From NCBI GenBank assembly GCA_964346575.1, contig CAYFVN010000234.1, positions 1 through 57,051 of the forward strand: a stretch of 57,051 bases of DNA. Reading direction: 5' to 3'. The position numbers and the translations under genes are program-made. Of the stretch, positions 27,105-47,449 are shown in pieces. The stretch is from an uncultured Candidatus Bathyarchaeia archaeon. GTDB taxonomy: Archaea > Thermoproteota > Bathyarchaeia > 40CM-2-53-6 > DTGE01. Each line of letters opens with the position of its first letter. Positions within the stretch are counted from its first letter, which is position 1. The notes under the pieces are model-generated. The model saw only the letters and a program-made list of their open reading frames with translations, did no database searches and was not told the DNA's origin.

Positions 27105-27250
27105 TGGTGGGCCGGCCCGGATTTGAACCGGGGACCCTTCAGCCCTCCTCTTCTTTGATGAGGGTTTCTGCGTCTCCTGGGTTGGCTACTTGTCAGGCAG
27201 ATGTCCTAATTATTCCATCATTTAGGATGTCCAAACTAGACGACCGGCCC
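27105..27250 (-). tRNA. tRNA-Val (anticodon GAC) with three introns (D-loop, anticodon loop, variable region); CCA encoded
   Basis: Manual fold: acceptor GGGCCGG/CCGGCCC, A, CCA. D stem GTCT/GGAC encloses 31 nt, implying a ~21-nt insert at 27208..27228. Anticodon stem TCTGC/GCAGA with loop CU-GAC-A and a ~18-nt insert at 27173..27190. A ~29-nt insert at 27138..27166 precedes the variable loop GGGTC. T arm CCCGG-TTCAAAT-CCGGG. TATA-like TTAATAAT lies 18-25 nt upstream (27268..27275). Confidence 0.8.
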
Positions 27251-42996: not shown

Positions 42997-43813
42997 CTCC
43001 TACAACCTCCTCTGAGGCTCCAGCTAAAACCTTCAAAGCCTCGGACTCCATGAAATGTAACCTCCCAGGAGCCACGATGCAGTGGGGAGGCCCCCCAAAA
43101 CTGAACATGCCTAAACGGTCAAACCTATCTGCTCTAACTATCTGATCCGGGCCTCCAAGCCGCGCCACACCCACCATTAAACGGTCTCCTGTGAACACAT
43201 CCTCTCCTCTTACGTCCTCAAGCTCAGACAGTATCTTCAAAGCTTCAGACACTGGCATGTAACGCTCCTCCTCAGCCCTCACATCCAAGAGGATCAACGA
43301 GTGCAATCCTAACATCATATTGCTCTTACAGTAGTCGTAGACCGACCCTGGAAGGGATCCACCGTCGATGAATGGCAAGGTTACGCTACGCCCAAACTTG
43401 TAGCTCTGCAGTCCAGTCGCACCCGGCACAGCCGACGATACAGAGGCCGCGTGTACGACACGAGTAGCTATACCGGTGACTTCAGCTCTAAGCCTTAAAT
43501 CCATGTGCGTAGTAGCGTTCATGGGATCCCCTGGAACTAGGAGGCATACCCTACCCCCTAGAGCGGGCTTCAATATGAGTCTCTCAGCATCCTCCTCTAC
43601 GTTCCTCCTCAGAAGAATCCTCACGTGCTTACCTATTAAAGACTCAAGCCTAGACGGTGAAAAGCCGGGCATCAGACTCGTATAGAGCTCAGCGAACACC
43701 ACGTCCGCTCTCTTAACCTCCTCCAGCCCTCTGAGGGATAACCCGCACTCGTCGAATAATCCCAAGCCCACAAATACAAGCAACCCTTCCAGTAACCCTC
43801 CTAATTCAAACAC
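42986..43813 (-). CDS. dphB: diphthine synthase
   Basis: LVFVGLGLFDECGLSLRGLEEVKRADVVFAELYTS, LVPGDPMNATTH and GLHSLILLD (tetrapyrrole-methylase fold, DPH5 family). Confidence 0.9.
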   Translation of the reverse strand: MFELGGLLEGLLVFVGLGLFDECGLSLRGLEEVKRADVVFAELYTSLMPGFSPSRLESLIGKHVRILLRRNVEEDAERLILKPALGGRVCLLVPGDPMNATTHMDLRLRAEVTGIATRVVHAASVSSAVPGATGLQSYKFGRSVTLPFIDGGSLPGSVYDYCKSNMMLGLHSLILLDVRAEEERYMPVSEALKILSELEDVRGEDVFTGDRLMVGVARLGGPDQIVRADRFDRLGMFSFGGPPHCIVAPGRLHFMESEALKVLAGASEEVVGDGR

Positions 43814-43894
43814 CTAATTCGAACTAGAAGGAACCTTTATTTAAGGGAGACCCATCCACCTACAAACCCAGCGAGAAGAAGGGGAAATGGGTGA

Positions 43895-44081
43895 GGGCCC
43901 GTAGCTCAGCCAGACCCAACGTCCACTCCTACGGGCTGAATGGTGGGCGTGGATCCTGAAGAGGTAGAGCAGCGGACTTCGAAGCCTGACGAGGGGAGGC
44001 TGAAGCTCTTAACCCGAAAGGACGGTGTTGAGGCATCGCCCTGGGGAGAGGTCCGGGGTTCGAATCCCCGCGAGCCCGCCA
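43895..44081 (+). tRNA. tRNA-Lys (anticodon CUU, best manual fold) with three introns; CCA encoded
   Basis: 5' GGGCCCGTAGCTCAGCCAG ... GGTAGAGC (D arm split by a ~49-nt insert, 43914..43962). Anticodon arm GCGG|G-CTCTTAA-CCCGA is split by a ~29-nt insert (43976..44004). A ~31-nt insert (44018..44048) precedes AGGTC. T arm CGGGG-TTCGAAT-CCCCG, then CGAGCCC-G-CCA. Two non-WC pairs (C5.A68, G27.A43) lower confidence in the isotype. Confidence 0.7.
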
Positions 44082-44245
44082 AGACCTAAGTGAGCGCATT
44101 ATAACTGTTACCATAAATAAACATATTTTTCGATAGTTCACCTGAAGCATTCTTTTAAATATTCGACACAAATCCGGTGATAATTAAGGTTTAAAAGAGT
44201 TTTCTGCAGTTAACTCAATTAACTATTGATGTTCATGTATTCAGA

Positions 44246-44285
44246 AAAACGTTCAAATGTTCATTAAAACGTTCAAATGTTCAAA
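44246..44285. repeat. tandem 20-bp direct repeat (AAAACGTTCAAATGTTCA-NN) x2, part of a cluster of five GTTCA pentamers
   Basis: Copies at 44246..44265 and 44266..44285 are 18/20 identical. GTTCA occurs at 44231, 44251, 44259, 44271 and 44279. Located about 165 bp 3' of tRNA-Lys. Confidence 0.8.
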
Positions 44286-44587
44286 TGATCAATAGATAAA
44301 GGATACATATTTGGATTCTATTATTTCAACTCTACTCTAAATGCTCGTATTTACTTATAATATACCTCTCATTATTGAGGTCAAAAAATTACTAAACTAG
44401 ATCATGAAATAAAATATTTAAGCGTCCTTAAATCGCCTTCACATAAGCTAAACAGATTTTGCATATCGGTTTTATGCCTTCCTTGAAATAAATTCTATCA
44501 AGCTTTCCTCGATGTTACTACTGGTTATTTTTAATTTATTATTGGTTAAAAGCGTGAGTTAATTTAATTAAGTCATAGATACATCGA

Positions 44588-44980
44588 TTGGTATGTGTTG
44601 GCTATATCAATTTATATCACCTTTTTTTCTCTAATAAGTTCTATAGGGGTGTTTACTTGGCTGTTGTCAAGGGGAGAGTTGTAAGAGTAGACGACTACTT
44701 CGAGTTTAAAGTTGGAAACCGAGGTAAGGCTGATTATTGTCCGATTACGCTACGATGCGATGACGGGGATCTAATTCAGATTTCAATGGATGTGAAGGTT
44801 ATGATGGAGAAGACGTACATGGTTAACAGCGAAACTGGAAACCCCATTCAGGTAGGTATGATCAAGCCGAAAGTTGGAGATTTGCTTGAAGTTGAAGGAG
44901 CGGTATATAAAAGTTATAACGGTGTCCATTCGAAAAAGATGAGATACGTTAAGAAAATAACGAGAACAGTCGACCGATAA
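44588..44980 (+). CDS. hypothetical beta-rich (possibly OB-fold-like) protein
   Basis: ORF in the low-GC island. The likely start is TTG 44657, 5 nt after AGGGGTG, giving 107 aa (MAVVKGRVVRVDDYFEFKVGN...). No family recognised. Confidence 0.4.
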   Translation: MVCVGYINLYHLFFSNKFYRGVYLAVVKGRVVRVDDYFEFKVGNRGKADYCPITLRCDDGDLIQISMDVKVMMEKTYMVNSETGNPIQVGMIKPKVGDLLEVEGAVYKSYNGVHSKKMRYVKKITRTVDR

Positions 44981-45079
44981 ACTATTTATTGAGTTTAAAC
45001 TGCTCTCCATCTTGAAACTTTTCAACTCACATTCCCCACCATCATTTTTTAATTATACTAAAAAATACGGTGTTAAACA

Positions 45080-45149
45080 CGTCAAATAGGTCAGAATCGC
45101 CGTCAAATACTTTAAATGAGTACAGAAACGTTAAAATCATCGTCAAATA
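45080..45149. repeat. three direct copies of CGTCAAATA (iteron-like)
   Basis: Exact 9-mers at 45080..45088, 45101..45109 and 45141..45149 (spacings 21 and 40 bp), in the spacer between convergent genes. Confidence 0.8.
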
Positions 45150-45267
45150 TAAAAGATTCCACCATCAGGATAGTTCCCTGATGTCTACATATATTACCCA
45201 TCCGTATTACTATATCCTCCTCTTGAGGTAATAGCGCGCGCCTTATTGCTTTGCATTTCAAGCTTCA

Positions 45268-45305
45268 TTGACGATAGTTGTCTGATAATTTTGACGGCTG
45301 TTGAC
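45268..45305. repeat. inverted-orientation copies of the same core (TTGACG x2, TTGACT x1)
   Basis: TTGACG at 45268 and 45291, and TTGACT at 45301, are reverse complements of the CGTCAA core. They face the direct copies across a hairpin (45163..45183) and a GCGCGCGC block (45234..45241). Confidence 0.6.
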
Positions 45306-45439
45306 TATAATTATTAAATCAATTCCAAGTATAATCTGGAGTCGTTTATGAAGAATAAGTACTTTACATTCAGTCAATTTGAATAGCCATCTCAGGATTT
45401 AATTTGGTAGTTCATCGAATCTAAACATGTAATTAATTG

Positions 45440-46591
45440 TCATCTGATTAACCCTTCAAGTTTTGAGTTGTATTCAACTATTTTTTCTTCGCAGACTTTG
45501 ACATCTTCATCCTTCTTCTTCTTTGTTTTTATAGCGTTGTCGAGTCCTTCTCTCTTTTTCTGTAGTTCTTTCTTAGCCCTTTCAAGCTCTGTCTTCTTTT
45601 CTATCGTTCCCAAATCTTGAAGTCTACGATCTTTCTCTACGAAATCGTTGAACTTTTCCATGTATTTCTTTATTTTATCCTCCTTCAAGATACTTGAGAT
45701 GGCTTCTATAGCCTTCCTGTTTCTTGAACTCTTTAAATTCAGCTTCCTTTCCTTCAACAACTCTCGGAGATAGACTAAAGCTTCCTCTAGGATCTTTTCA
45801 TCTACAATGTTTAATAGCATATCTCTGGGGTCGTCGATAAACCTTCCAAGTTGTATAGCCTTTTGCAGATCGTAATCGACTGATCCACGTTCAGCCAACT
45901 TAAGTGTTTTAAAGACGGGCTTCTCCAGATACCTAAGCTCTCTCTTAACTCTCTCCTCGAATGTTCTCTCGTCTTCTTTAAACTTTTCAACCTTAATTAG
46001 GTCCTCCTTCTGCCCCAGGCTTCGTATCACTTCCTCGTGTTCTTCAATCATCCTCCTCGTCTTCTTCATGTTCTTCACTGTATCATCTAGAGCATCTCTC
46101 TTAGCTGATAACTCTGCTTTAAGTTTGGATATTTTATCAACTATGTTCTCAGCTCTTTGCCATCTTTTCAGCTCGCTCTTATAATTTGAAAACATATCCT
46201 TGAGATCTTGCGTCAGATTTTGAACTCGCTTTCTATCGTCTTCAATTCTTGTAATCTTAATTTTACGCTTGAAGCCGATCCTTCTAACCCACTTAGCCCC
46301 GTAATACATGATCTCCTTTTGAAAATTGTCCAAGGCATCGATATACGTGTCAATATCTCGAAGACCAATCTTATCAGGCCTTTTAATATCTGAGGCTAAG
46401 GATCCTGCTTTACTGCCGAACTGCTCCGCAAAGTTGTCTCCGGAACCTTCAAGTTTTCCCGATTCAGAGACTATAGATTCTAGAGCTTCTTGAATTTTAT
46501 TCAAGACCTCTTCGAATCCGTTTTCGACATCAGCAAAACTACGCTGTACCCTCTTATTTAGATCATGAACTTCATCTTTATCAGACTGCAA
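45440..46591 (-). CDS. hypothetical long coiled-coil protein
   Basis: 383 aa, extremely K/E/R/D-rich with heptad-like character. No NTPase or other catalytic motif is visible. Lies in the low-GC island. Confidence 0.5.
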   Translation of the reverse strand: MQSDKDEVHDLNKRVQRSFADVENGFEEVLNKIQEALESIVSESGKLEGSGDNFAEQFGSKAGSLASDIKRPDKIGLRDIDTYIDALDNFQKEIMYYGAKWVRRIGFKRKIKITRIEDDRKRVQNLTQDLKDMFSNYKSELKRWQRAENIVDKISKLKAELSAKRDALDDTVKNMKKTRRMIEEHEEVIRSLGQKEDLIKVEKFKEDERTFEERVKRELRYLEKPVFKTLKLAERGSVDYDLQKAIQLGRFIDDPRDMLLNIVDEKILEEALVYLRELLKERKLNLKSSRNRKAIEAISSILKEDKIKKYMEKFNDFVEKDRRLQDLGTIEKKTELERAKKELQKKREGLDNAIKTKKKKDEDVKVCEEKIVEYNSKLEGLIR

Positions 46592-46721
46592 TAACCACCG
46601 TATACCCCCATTTTCCTATACTCGACTCGTTTATTTAACCTACATTTCAGGGATTAATAATTTAATCGATAACACGGTAATAGAGACTTAAGCGATATTA
46701 TATCTTATTGTTAGATTACAA

Positions 46722-47267
46722 ATGAGTGGTGAAGGCATGGATTCAATACCTCGCGCAGGTACTATTGTTTATGATTTAATCTATGGTGATGATGAACAAG
46801 AAAAGATTGCCATCAGAAAATTTCAGCTTTTAAATTCCTATATTTTAGTCCCCCTCTATCGTATTGGTCTCTTGCCCATAATGGGTTTTAGCAGAATATT
46901 TTTACTTCTTGAGACTGTTGGACGGAAAACTGGTTTCAAACGTGTTACCCCTTTAGAGTATCACAGGATTGATGGTGTAATTCACATTATTTCGGCCAGA
47001 GGAAAGAGATCGGATTGGTTTAAAAATTTACAAAAAAATCCCGATATGGTTTCAGTTAAACTTGGATTTCACAGTTTTAGTCCCCGAATAGAAATCATAG
47101 ATGATCCGAAGGAAAAATTGAAAGTTCTAAAATGGTACGTGACAACTCATCCAACTTTGGCCAAGCACTTAATCGGCTGGGATAGCAGAACAGACGATGC
47201 AGAATCAGGTTTATTAAGTCCTCTAGTCAAATTATTCCAGATCATCAGATTATACGAAGCAAAATAA
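46722..47267 (+). CDS. nitroreductase-family deazaflavin-dependent oxidoreductase-like protein (DUF385)
   Basis: RIFLLLETVGRKTGFKRVTPLEYHRIDGVIHIISARGKRSDWFKNLQKNPDMVSVKLG matches the DUF385/Ddn-like core (llLtT.GRkSG..R.tPl.y......vvaS.gG...Wy.NL.anP.v.v). Confidence 0.6.
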   Translation: MSGEGMDSIPRAGTIVYDLIYGDDEQEKIAIRKFQLLNSYILVPLYRIGLLPIMGFSRIFLLLETVGRKTGFKRVTPLEYHRIDGVIHIISARGKRSDWFKNLQKNPDMVSVKLGFHSFSPRIEIIDDPKEKLKVLKWYVTTHPTLAKHLIGWDSRTDDAESGLLSPLVKLFQIIRLYEAK

Positions 47268-47296
47268 GGATCTACACCATCAAACGTGTAGATTCT
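47267..47296 (+). terminator. stem-loop immediately after the DUF385 stop codon
   Basis: AGGATCTACAC-catcaaac-GTGTAGATTCT, about 11 bp including one G.U. Archaeal termination does not require hairpins, so the function is uncertain. Confidence 0.3.
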
Positions 47297-47449
47297 AGGT
47301 TCGTTACTATTCTATTTGAACTGATCGATGAACGATTGATAAACTTACCAATACCTTTATGAGAACGTGACGACAACATTCTCCCCCACGATTCGTAGTC
47401 TTCTGGCTCAGGTTACTGAGTAGTAAACCTTTGTGAGGCTTGTTATTTA

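Follow-up and report, generated by a model that had tools for sequence, protein, structure and literature searches.

A probable three-intron tRNA-Lys(CUU) gene, interrupted at non-canonical sites, in a Bathyarchaeia-like archaeon

Archaeal tRNA introns are cut at a motif termed bulge-helix-bulge (BHB), in which two 3-nt bulges surround a 4-bp helix (H). This core is flanked by one helix on the exon side (h) and another on the intron side (h′), and cleavage takes place after the second base of the bulge. Non-canonical BHB introns occupy many tRNA positions, 30/31 included (PMC4090602). Archaeal tRNA genes have up to three introns, mostly in Thermoproteales (PMC4390854, PMC4033280, PMC8450103), and three-intron examples are the Pyrobaculum calidifontis tRNA-Glu(UUC) and P. 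islandicum tRNA-Pro(UGG) genes (PMC4390854, PMC4090602, PMC4033280, PMC8450103). [quoted passage not shown] Here we analyze a tRNA-Lys(CUU) locus on contig CAYFVN010000234.1 (assembly GCA_964346575.1, an uncultured Candidatus Bathyarchaeia archaeon); the stretch of 57,051 nt (contig positions 1 to 57,051) is referred to as the window. Judged from its sequence and that of its relatives, the locus is very probably a functional-type archaeal tRNA-Lys(CUU) gene with three protein-spliced introns at the non-canonical sites 17/17a, 30/31 and 43/44.

The gene covers window positions 43895..44081 on the forward strand (187 nt) and has four exons and three introns, in the order GGGCCCGTAGCTCAGCC-(50 nt)-AGGTAGAGCAGCGG-(29 nt)-GCTCTTAACCCGA-(31 nt)-AGGTCCGGGGTTCGAATCCCCGCGAGCCCGCCA. 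The introns (50, 29 and 31 nt) lie after tRNA positions 17, 30 and 43, respectively, and amount to 110 of the 187 nt; the coding sequence is 77 nt, a 74-nt body plus CCA (Table 1). All four exons are collinear on a single strand within the 187 nt, and the gene is neither split nor permuted. When the exons are joined, the product (GGGCCCGTAGCTCAGCCAGGTAGAGCAGCGGGCTCTTAACCCGAAGGTCCGGGGTTCGAATCCCCGCGAGCCCG+CCA) is called as a 77-nt tRNA-Lys(ctt) by ARAGORN with default settings. The spliced exons form a canonical cloverleaf with U8, A14, G18G19, U33, the T-loop TTCGAAT, a discriminator (G73) and a CCA end encoded in the genome. C5⋅A68 (A68 is at 44075) and G27⋅A43 are the only stem mismatches. 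The predicted exon-exon junctions are GCTCAGCC^AGGTAGAGC for intron 1, AGCGG^GCTCTTAA (longer form GCAGCGG^GCTCTTAACCCGA) for intron 2, and CCCGA^AGGTC (longer form CCCGA^AGGTCCGGGG) for intron 3.

In its unspliced form the gene escapes standard annotation. Neither ARAGORN with default settings nor Rfam at gathering thresholds reports any tRNA gene in the whole 57-kb window, and a permissive Rfam scan gives only 14.3 bits (E 4.2) with the tRNA model. When introns are allowed, ARAGORN makes a single call with the same boundaries (43895..44081), but as tRNA-Val(CAC) with one 97-nt intron. A second tRNA-Lys(CUU) copy was not found in the window.

BHB motifs were searched by enumerating all position pairs of the segment for geometry, followed by refinement per intron; intron 1 was located by an unconstrained BHB search. 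A motif was found at each of the three sites. The one at 30/31 is a textbook strict hBHBh′. At the D-loop site the exon-side helix h has only 1 bp, which makes it an HBh′-like motif of the relaxed type, and the motif at 43/44 is also relaxed, without an exon-side helix h. In 20,000 shuffles of each intron with the splice junctions kept fixed, the fraction matching or beating the observed H plus h′ pairing was 0.002 for intron 1, 0 for intron 2 and 0.012 for intron 3. The three BHB motifs exceed chance. They span 43906-43962, 43966-44009 and 44012-44049, do not overlap, and could coexist in one RNA.

Table 1. Coordinates of the tRNA-Lys(CUU) gene, its predicted splicing motifs and the features around it in the window
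Feature	Position	Strand	Remarks
Exon 1	43895..43911	+	tRNA positions 1-17; acceptor 5′ strand GGGCCCG, U8 A9, D-stem 5′ strand GCTC, D-loop AGCC; basis: BHB cut site, ortholog exon
Intron 1	43912..43961	+	50 nt; 17/17a, in D-loop; BHB1, HBh′-like
Exon 2	43962..43975	+	tRNA positions 17a-30; A GG TA, D-stem 3′ strand GAGC, A26, anticodon-stem 5′ strand GCGG
Intron 2	43976..44004	+	29 nt; 30/31; strict hBHBh′
Exon 3	44005..44017	+	tRNA positions 31-43; G31, anticodon loop CTCTTAA, anticodon CTT at 44008-44010, anticodon-stem 3′ strand CCCGA
Intron 3	44018..44048	+	31 nt; 43/44; relaxed BHB; equivalently 44/45, the junction base A being repeated
Exon 4	44049..44081	+	tRNA positions 44-76; variable loop AGGTC, T arm CGGGG-TTCGAAT-CCCCG, acceptor 3′ strand CGAGCCC
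BHB1 helix H	43906-43909 with 43956-43959	+	TCAG with CTGA; 4 bp
BHB1 bulges	43910-43912, 43960-43962	+	CCA, AGA
BHB1 helix h′	43913-43917 with 43951-43955	+	GACCC with GGATC; one C⋅A mismatch
BHB1 h′ extension	43920-43926 with 43943-43949	+	CGTCCAC with GTGGGCG; part of the hairpin of the sequence-only reading
BHB2 helix h	43966-43969 with 44006-44009	+	AGAG with CTCT; both strands exonic
BHB2 helix H	43970-43973 with 43999-44002	+	CAGC with GCTG
BHB2 bulges	43974-43976, 44003-44005	+	GGA, AAG
BHB2 helix h′	43977-43980 with 43995-43998	+	CTTC with GGAG
BHB3 helix H	44012-44015 with 44043-44046	+	ACCC with GGGG; 3 pairs plus outer A⋅G
BHB3 bulges	44016-44018, 44047-44049	+	GAA, AGA
BHB3 helix h′	44019-44027 with 44034-44042	+	AGGACGGTG with CATCGCCCT; 9 bp, one A⋅C mismatch
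Candidate promoter element	43836..43844	+	TATA-box-like TTTATTTAA; 51-59 nt upstream of the mature 5′ end
Low-GC stretch	44082..47400		GC 0.36-0.38, ∼3.3 kb, directly after the tRNA; context, not part of the gene
Low-GC open reading frame	44588-44980	+	no family assignment
Low-GC open reading frame	45440-46591	-	no family assignment

Orthologs were collected in two scans. A scan of genomes (one per species) with the anticodon-arm exon pattern, allowing 0-30 nt at 30/31, gave 17 matches. Four of them carry an insert (L002, L007, L012 and L017), and all four are Candidatus Bathyarchaeia/Bathyarchaeota metagenome-assembled genomes (MAGs); the insert-free matches come from other archaea and from bacteria and differ at position 43. 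On this basis the host is most likely a member of Bathyarchaeia from a hot spring, and a Thermoproteales host (Caldivirga or Vulcanisaeta), considered because of GC content, is rejected. The window gene itself does not occur in the genome collection. Each Bathyarchaeia genome hit contains only one interrupted copy matching the pattern; one of these assemblies, CP070659.1, was submitted as a complete chromosome. A metagenome scan in which an insert of 10-40 nt at 30/31 was obligatory added 60 loci, one of which is a chance match. We parsed 61 genes, window included: 38 have only the 30/31 intron, 14 have introns at 9/10 and 30/31, two in the D-loop and at 30/31, and seven share the three sites of the window gene (window, L076, L002, L025, L077, L073 and L066).

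Orthologs that lack one of the introns read the exact predicted junctions. L017, which has no D-loop intron, reads GCTCAGCCAGGTAGAGC, i.e., GCTCAGCC^AGGTAGAGC (D-loop AGCC^AGGTA), and L007, L012 and L017, which have no intron 3, read CCCGA^AGGTC. The splice junctions are thereby confirmed, the length of intron 1 is set at 50 nt and the register of intron 3 is chosen. For intron 3 the register is fixed by the orthologous product, geometry alone being insufficient. ARAGORN is blind to the splice register, and accepted 77-, 78- and 79-nt products alike.

The exons are far better conserved than the introns. When compared with L002 and L025, the window exons are identical at 73 of 74 positions, and at 72 of 74 when compared with L066. 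Across the three-intron family exon identity is 72-74 of 74 and intron identity 40-74%, and the DNA of the flanking protein genes shows ∼69% identity. Intron 1 is 50 nt in the window vs. 32, 33 and 20 nt in L002, L025 and L066, and intron 2 is 29 nt vs. 17, 16 and 15 nt, respectively.

Base pairing of the motifs is nevertheless retained. In the 30/31 BHB (31 distinct cores), 92.9% of the cells are paired in register vs. 21-51% when the strands are slid by 1-3 columns, six of six h′ pairs have changed on both sides, and 0 of 500 shuffles reach the covariation score. Results were similar for the D-loop BHB, with six distinct cores, 96.7% paired in register vs. 23-53% slid, three h′ pairs changed on both sides and 0 of 500 shuffles. 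For the 43/44 BHB (four distinct cores) the values are 87.5% vs. 22-50%, three h′ pairs changed on both sides and 8 of 500 shuffles. The registers entering this test were picked among the few that yield the same product. All 13 distinct spliced products are called tRNA-Lys(ctt), and the acceptor stem covaries across the family (GGGTCCG/CGGACCC, GGACCCG/CGGGTCC). These comparisons indicate that both the exons and the BHB pairing are under selection in the orthologs.

An earlier reading of the window, made from its letters alone (the sequence-only reading), had placed a tRNA-Lys(CUU) gene with three introns at 43895..44081. BHB geometry at all three sites, the Lys(ctt) call on the spliced product, and the diverged and covarying orthologs bear this out. 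The insert that it saw in the D-loop is present, but the BHB cuts and L017 make it 50 nt (43912..43961) rather than 49 nt, and the estimate of about 109 intronic nt among 187 is corrected to 110. The 8-bp hairpin described within that insert, ACGTCCAC (43919..43926) with GTGGGCGT (43943..43950), exists, with seven Watson-Crick pairs and one G⋅U, and so do the 31-nt insert at 43/44 and both non-Watson-Crick pairs, C5⋅A68 and G27⋅A43. At 30/31 the 29-nt insert is retained, but the hairpin drawn for it, CTTC-AGCCT...AGGCT-GAAG, does not represent the structure used in splicing; the conserved structure there is the BHB.

Several observations weigh against a three-intron gene. First, the 187-nt precursor has its global minimum free energy (MFE; -78.6 kcal/mol at 37°C) in another fold, which pairs the 5′ acceptor strand with CTACGGGC in intron 1, and the three-BHB arrangement reaches -63.6 kcal/mol. 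Against dinucleotide shuffles, the three local domains show no excess stability (z -0.6 to -1.2). For introns 1 and 3, the BHB conformers come within 0.3 and 0.2 kcal/mol of the local optimum, respectively, and that of intron 2 lies ∼4.9 kcal/mol above the local MFE, where the inner helix is shifted. As modelled here, folding energy by itself gives no support for the structure. Second, helix H of intron 3 has an outer A⋅G (or A⋅C) mismatch in every ortholog in addition to lacking h, and an alternative register for this intron looks more canonical, but its product is 2 nt too long. Third, both scan patterns fixed exon bases flanking 30/31, and the metagenome pattern demanded an insert there. 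That h and the exon strand of H do not vary at 30/31 is therefore uninformative, and the ubiquity of the 30/31 intron in the sample is partly by construction. Finally, C5⋅A68 is private to the window, being absent from all the other genes parsed. The case for the three-intron gene rests on BHB geometry and ortholog comparison.

The loop of intron 1 (43928..43940) contains CTACGGGCTGA, which is complementary to tRNA positions 3-10 (GCCCGTAG) within 43897..43911 and, in an overlapping way, to positions 12-17 (TCAGCC). This complementarity between loop and acceptor strand drives the global MFE misfold of the precursor. The complementary stretch is missing from the shorter intron 1 of L002, L025 and L066, and may be due to chance or to a lineage-specific insertion. 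Inspection of the window's introns by eye for C/D-box guide RNA motifs revealed CUGA boxes but no RUGAUGA box, and the idea of an intron-encoded C/D-box guide RNA was dropped.

Upstream of the tRNA gene lie genes for a tetrapyrrole-methylase-family protein (diphthine-synthase-like), a cytidylyltransferase (RibL-like), a CTP-dependent riboflavin kinase, endonuclease V and a translin-like protein. Synteny with tRNA-Lys(CUU) holds in most loci, with the diphthine-synthase-like gene in 33 and the RibL-like gene in 25. The TATA-box-like TTTATTTAA is a candidate tRNA promoter element, and similar A/T-rich TTTAT(T/C)TAAG elements are found ∼40-60 nt upstream of the gene in L002, L025, L031 and L053. 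The assignment is not certain, since the element lies between divergent genes. In L025 (6243..7843) and L077 (3119..4721) the diphthine-synthase-like gene and tRNA-Lys are ∼1.6 kb apart, vs. ∼0.1-0.3 kb in the window and L002, and this wider spacing looks like an insertion in that sub-lineage.

The 3′ end of the tRNA is a synteny breakpoint, and the sequence-only reading had taken the gene as the left border of a low-GC island. As composition this is correct: GC content falls from 0.53 (43001-44000) to 0.36-0.38 (44001-47000). As a mobile island it is another matter, because nothing in the window marks one. We consider it doubtful that the stretch 44082..∼47400 is a genomic island or mobile-element remnant integrated at the tRNA-Lys 3′ end. 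In its favor, the fall in GC from 0.53 to 0.36 coincides exactly with the end of the tRNA, and the downstream sequence matches no related locus, whereas the upstream genes are syntenic in most. The sister contig L076, of the same species, ends (its positions 1-7) 1-2 nt past CCA, where synteny breaks and the window's low-GC stretch starts, and this end is compatible with strain heterogeneity downstream of the tRNA. Six more distant relatives (L045, 8779..10086 on the reverse strand, and L037, L044, L051, L055 and L075) contain a conserved open reading frame (ORF) of 432-436 aa ∼50-60 nt past the CCA of the same tRNA, which matches the PHROG integrase family phrog_1 (E 7e-10) and has no match in Pfam or PDB. 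This placement suggests that the tRNA-Lys(CUU) 3′ end may be an integration hotspot.

Against an island, no integrase was found among the low-GC ORFs with Pfam or PHROG, and tblastn with the relatives' integrase-like ORF gave a best E of 0.15 in the window. A copy of the tRNA 3′ end longer than 10 nt, as expected of an att repeat, is absent from the whole window, and no att-like copy of the tRNA end was found within 10 kb downstream in the integrase-bearing loci either. The two low-GC ORFs have no Pfam or PHROG family, mobile-element families included, bar a sub-threshold coiled-coil-type match. A search for viral contigs with the tRNA-Lys 3′ end found none. Moreover, GC varies widely across the window anyway (0.28-0.54). 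The five downstream ORFs have no blastn or tblastn match in any related locus; none of these loci shares the downstream genes, and none shows an "empty site". On sequence grounds, the low-GC island is real as composition and unproven as a mobile element. Within it, an AT-rich tandem repeat occupies non-coding DNA at 44240..44292, with a 20-nt unit (TTCAGAAAAACGTTCAAATG, 2.2 copies) overlapping an 8-nt unit (AAATGTTC, 3.2 copies).

The two mismatches and the position beside this breakpoint could also mean that the gene is a decaying tRNA pseudogene, with the inserts as junk and the non-Watson-Crick pairs as signs of decay. C5⋅A68, unique to the window among the 61 genes, and the location next to the low-GC stretch are in line with that view. 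G27⋅A43, however, is present in all 13 distinct mature sequences, and this conservation points to a lineage trait of tRNA-Lys(CUU) rather than decay. In the other family members found, all pairs of the acceptor stem are formed, with G68 or with compensation at another of its pairs. L076 (JABAOH010125753.1), an independent metagenome contig, is 99.3% identical to the window over 2,387 nt, and its 187-nt gene equals that of the window except for G at position 68 (A at window position 44075). By this comparison A68 is a private single-base variant (strain variant) or an assembly error. The mismatch costs the cloverleaf ∼3.7 kcal/mol in the nearest-neighbour model, an approximate value, since the scoring forced the mismatch to pair. 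The acceptor stem is probably little weakened, and the mismatch is likely tolerated with six G-C pairs left, if it is not an assembly error.

Disabling substitutions have not accumulated: A68 is the only one in 74 nt, and the remainder is identical to L002, L025 and L076. A single base in 74 thus differs from orthologs whose flanking genes are ∼30% diverged, all three inserts keep BHB geometry with covariation, and no second copy with the same anticodon arm was found in the related Bathyarchaeia genomes hit by the scan. A pseudogene is quite unlikely on these grounds. The sequence-only reading had left a choice between an unusually processed tRNA and a decaying copy; with G27⋅A43 conserved and A68 as the sole private change, the former is retained and the latter is improbable.

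Within the three-intron gene, intron 3 could be cut in another register (helix H CCCG/TGGG, bulges AAA and GAG), to yield a 79-nt tRNA with a 7-nt variable loop. This register offers three Watson-Crick pairs and a G⋅U in H and clean 3-nt bulges in four of four orthologous versions, and its product is still called tRNA-Lys by ARAGORN. However, the orthologs without intron 3 read CCCGAAGGTC, with a 5-nt variable loop, class I tRNAs have variable loops of 4-5 nt, and the register that gives the orthologous product is the one lying so close to the local optimum. We regard the alternative register as very improbable.

The tRNA-Val(CAC) with a single 97-nt anticodon-loop intron, although the sole ARAGORN call with introns allowed and identical in its boundaries, is hardly credible at all, since this fold, forced because ARAGORN models only one intron, has C rather than U at position 33, a mismatched D stem with a tiny loop and a 90-nt "mature" RNA with ∼20 unpaired bases instead of a variable loop, and takes its anticodon CAC from a part of intron 1 that is missing from L002, L025 and L066. 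The call is an artefact, and only the acceptor stem and T arm of its fold are real. The Lys assignment of the sequence-only reading has thus survived the search for a better fold with another anticodon.

For the three-intron tRNA-Lys(CUU) gene, the following processing is proposed. One precursor of at least 187 nt would be transcribed, in which only the acceptor stem and the T arm would be able to form. Intron sequence would hold the D-stem strands and the anticodon-stem 3′ strand in three adjacent, non-overlapping BHBs. It follows from the coordinates that, with both D-stem strands and the anticodon-stem 3′ strand occupied in this way, the cloverleaf can fold only after splicing. The splicing endonuclease EndA would make six cuts, each following the second base of a 3-nt bulge, the RNA ligase RtcB would join the four exons, and the cloverleaf would then fold. 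The enzymes, cleavage chemistry, expression and splicing order in this scheme are inferred from established knowledge of archaeal tRNA splicing. TACK archaea mainly have a broad-specificity (alpha-beta)2 endonuclease (PMC8450103, PMC4033280, PMC4090602, PMC7714728), and EndA of this organism would presumably be of the same type.

Other tRNA genes of the window and its close relatives are also interrupted. A second such gene, missed by ARAGORN and Rfam, lies at 27109..27250 on the reverse strand (CCA to ∼27106). Its 7-bp acceptor stem is perfect and its T arm is good, and parsing by hand gives tRNA-Val(GAC) with a 21-nt insert in the D-loop (strict BHB), an 18-nt insert at ∼36/37 and a 29-nt insert at 44/45. 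This gene is probably the tRNA-Val to which the sequence-only reading refers. In L025 (3645..3751, reverse strand) and L073 (2502..2608, forward strand), a 107-nt interrupted gene ∼2.3 kb downstream of tRNA-Lys, missed by ARAGORN with default settings, was parsed by hand as a class II tRNA-Ser(GCU) with one intron near 38/39. The distinct tRNA genes sampled in the window and close relatives are therefore interrupted in three of three cases (Lys with three introns, Val with three by hand parse, Ser with one), and no uninterrupted tRNA was found in these ∼100 kb.

Introns 1 and 2 of tRNA-Lys (43956..43961 and 43999..44004) and the 44/45 intron of tRNA-Val (∼27141..27146, reverse strand) end in CTGAAG or GCTGAA(G), and each of these ends pairs with an exonic CAG-containing tetramer (TCAG, CAGC and GCAG). 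The common ends could reflect transposition to matching exon sites, as proposed for Thermoproteales, or mere BHB constraints.

For annotation, the consequence is that genomes of this lineage will appear to lack tRNA-Lys(CUU) unless BHB-aware tools are used: ARAGORN with default settings and Rfam miss the gene, and ARAGORN with introns allowed reports tRNA-Val. Heavily interrupted tRNA genes are extended from Thermoproteales and Thaumarchaeota to Bathyarchaeia-like archaea. The family, with one to three introns and gains or losses at 9/10, 17/17a and 43/44 over a constant 30/31 intron, offers a series for the study of intron gain.

The 30/31 interruption is common to 61 of 61 parsed genes, although the metagenome search required it, and to the trans-split tRNA-Lys(CUU) of Nanoarchaeum and Staphylothermus. 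Its helix h consists of A21-G24 with C32-U35 (AGAG/CUCU), i.e., the 3′ strand of the D arm and the loop of a CUN anticodon. Since these parts of the tRNA build helix h, the site may be pre-adapted to an intron or a split. Tentatively, it is possible that two things hold together, namely (i) that the 30/31 interruption of tRNA-Lys(CUU) is either one ancient feature or a recurrence dictated by the site; and (ii) that a hot-spring lineage is as rich in tRNA introns as Thermoproteales, among which the reported record is that of Pyrobaculum calidifontis (71 introns in 46 genes).

The three-intron arrangement is rare but already known; here it occurs in a Bathyarchaeia-like archaeon, and a full-text search found no published description of multi-intron tRNAs in Bathyarchaeia. 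As in the multi-intron tRNAs of Thermoproteales, three short BHB/HBh′ introns (the reported maximum) occupy non-canonical sites including 30/31, the exons are collinear, and removal by EndA and RtcB is presumed. The host differs from theirs in being Bathyarchaeia-like, to judge by its labelled MAG relatives. The window gene has no intron at the canonical 37/38, whereas in the P. islandicum example one intron is canonical and two are non-canonical. Positions 17/17a and 43/44 are missing from the example positions given in a review, a list that ends in "etc.". A eukaryotic nuclear case also has three ectopic BHB-dependent introns, one of them in the D arm as here, but the intron positions differ. 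[quoted passage not shown] In contrast, the split genes are two separately transcribed halves joined in trans, whereas the interruption described here is a cis-intron of 15-38 nt, and the window gene has two further introns. A cis-intron at a split-gene junction is relevant to the question which of the two, split or intron-containing genes, gave rise to the other.

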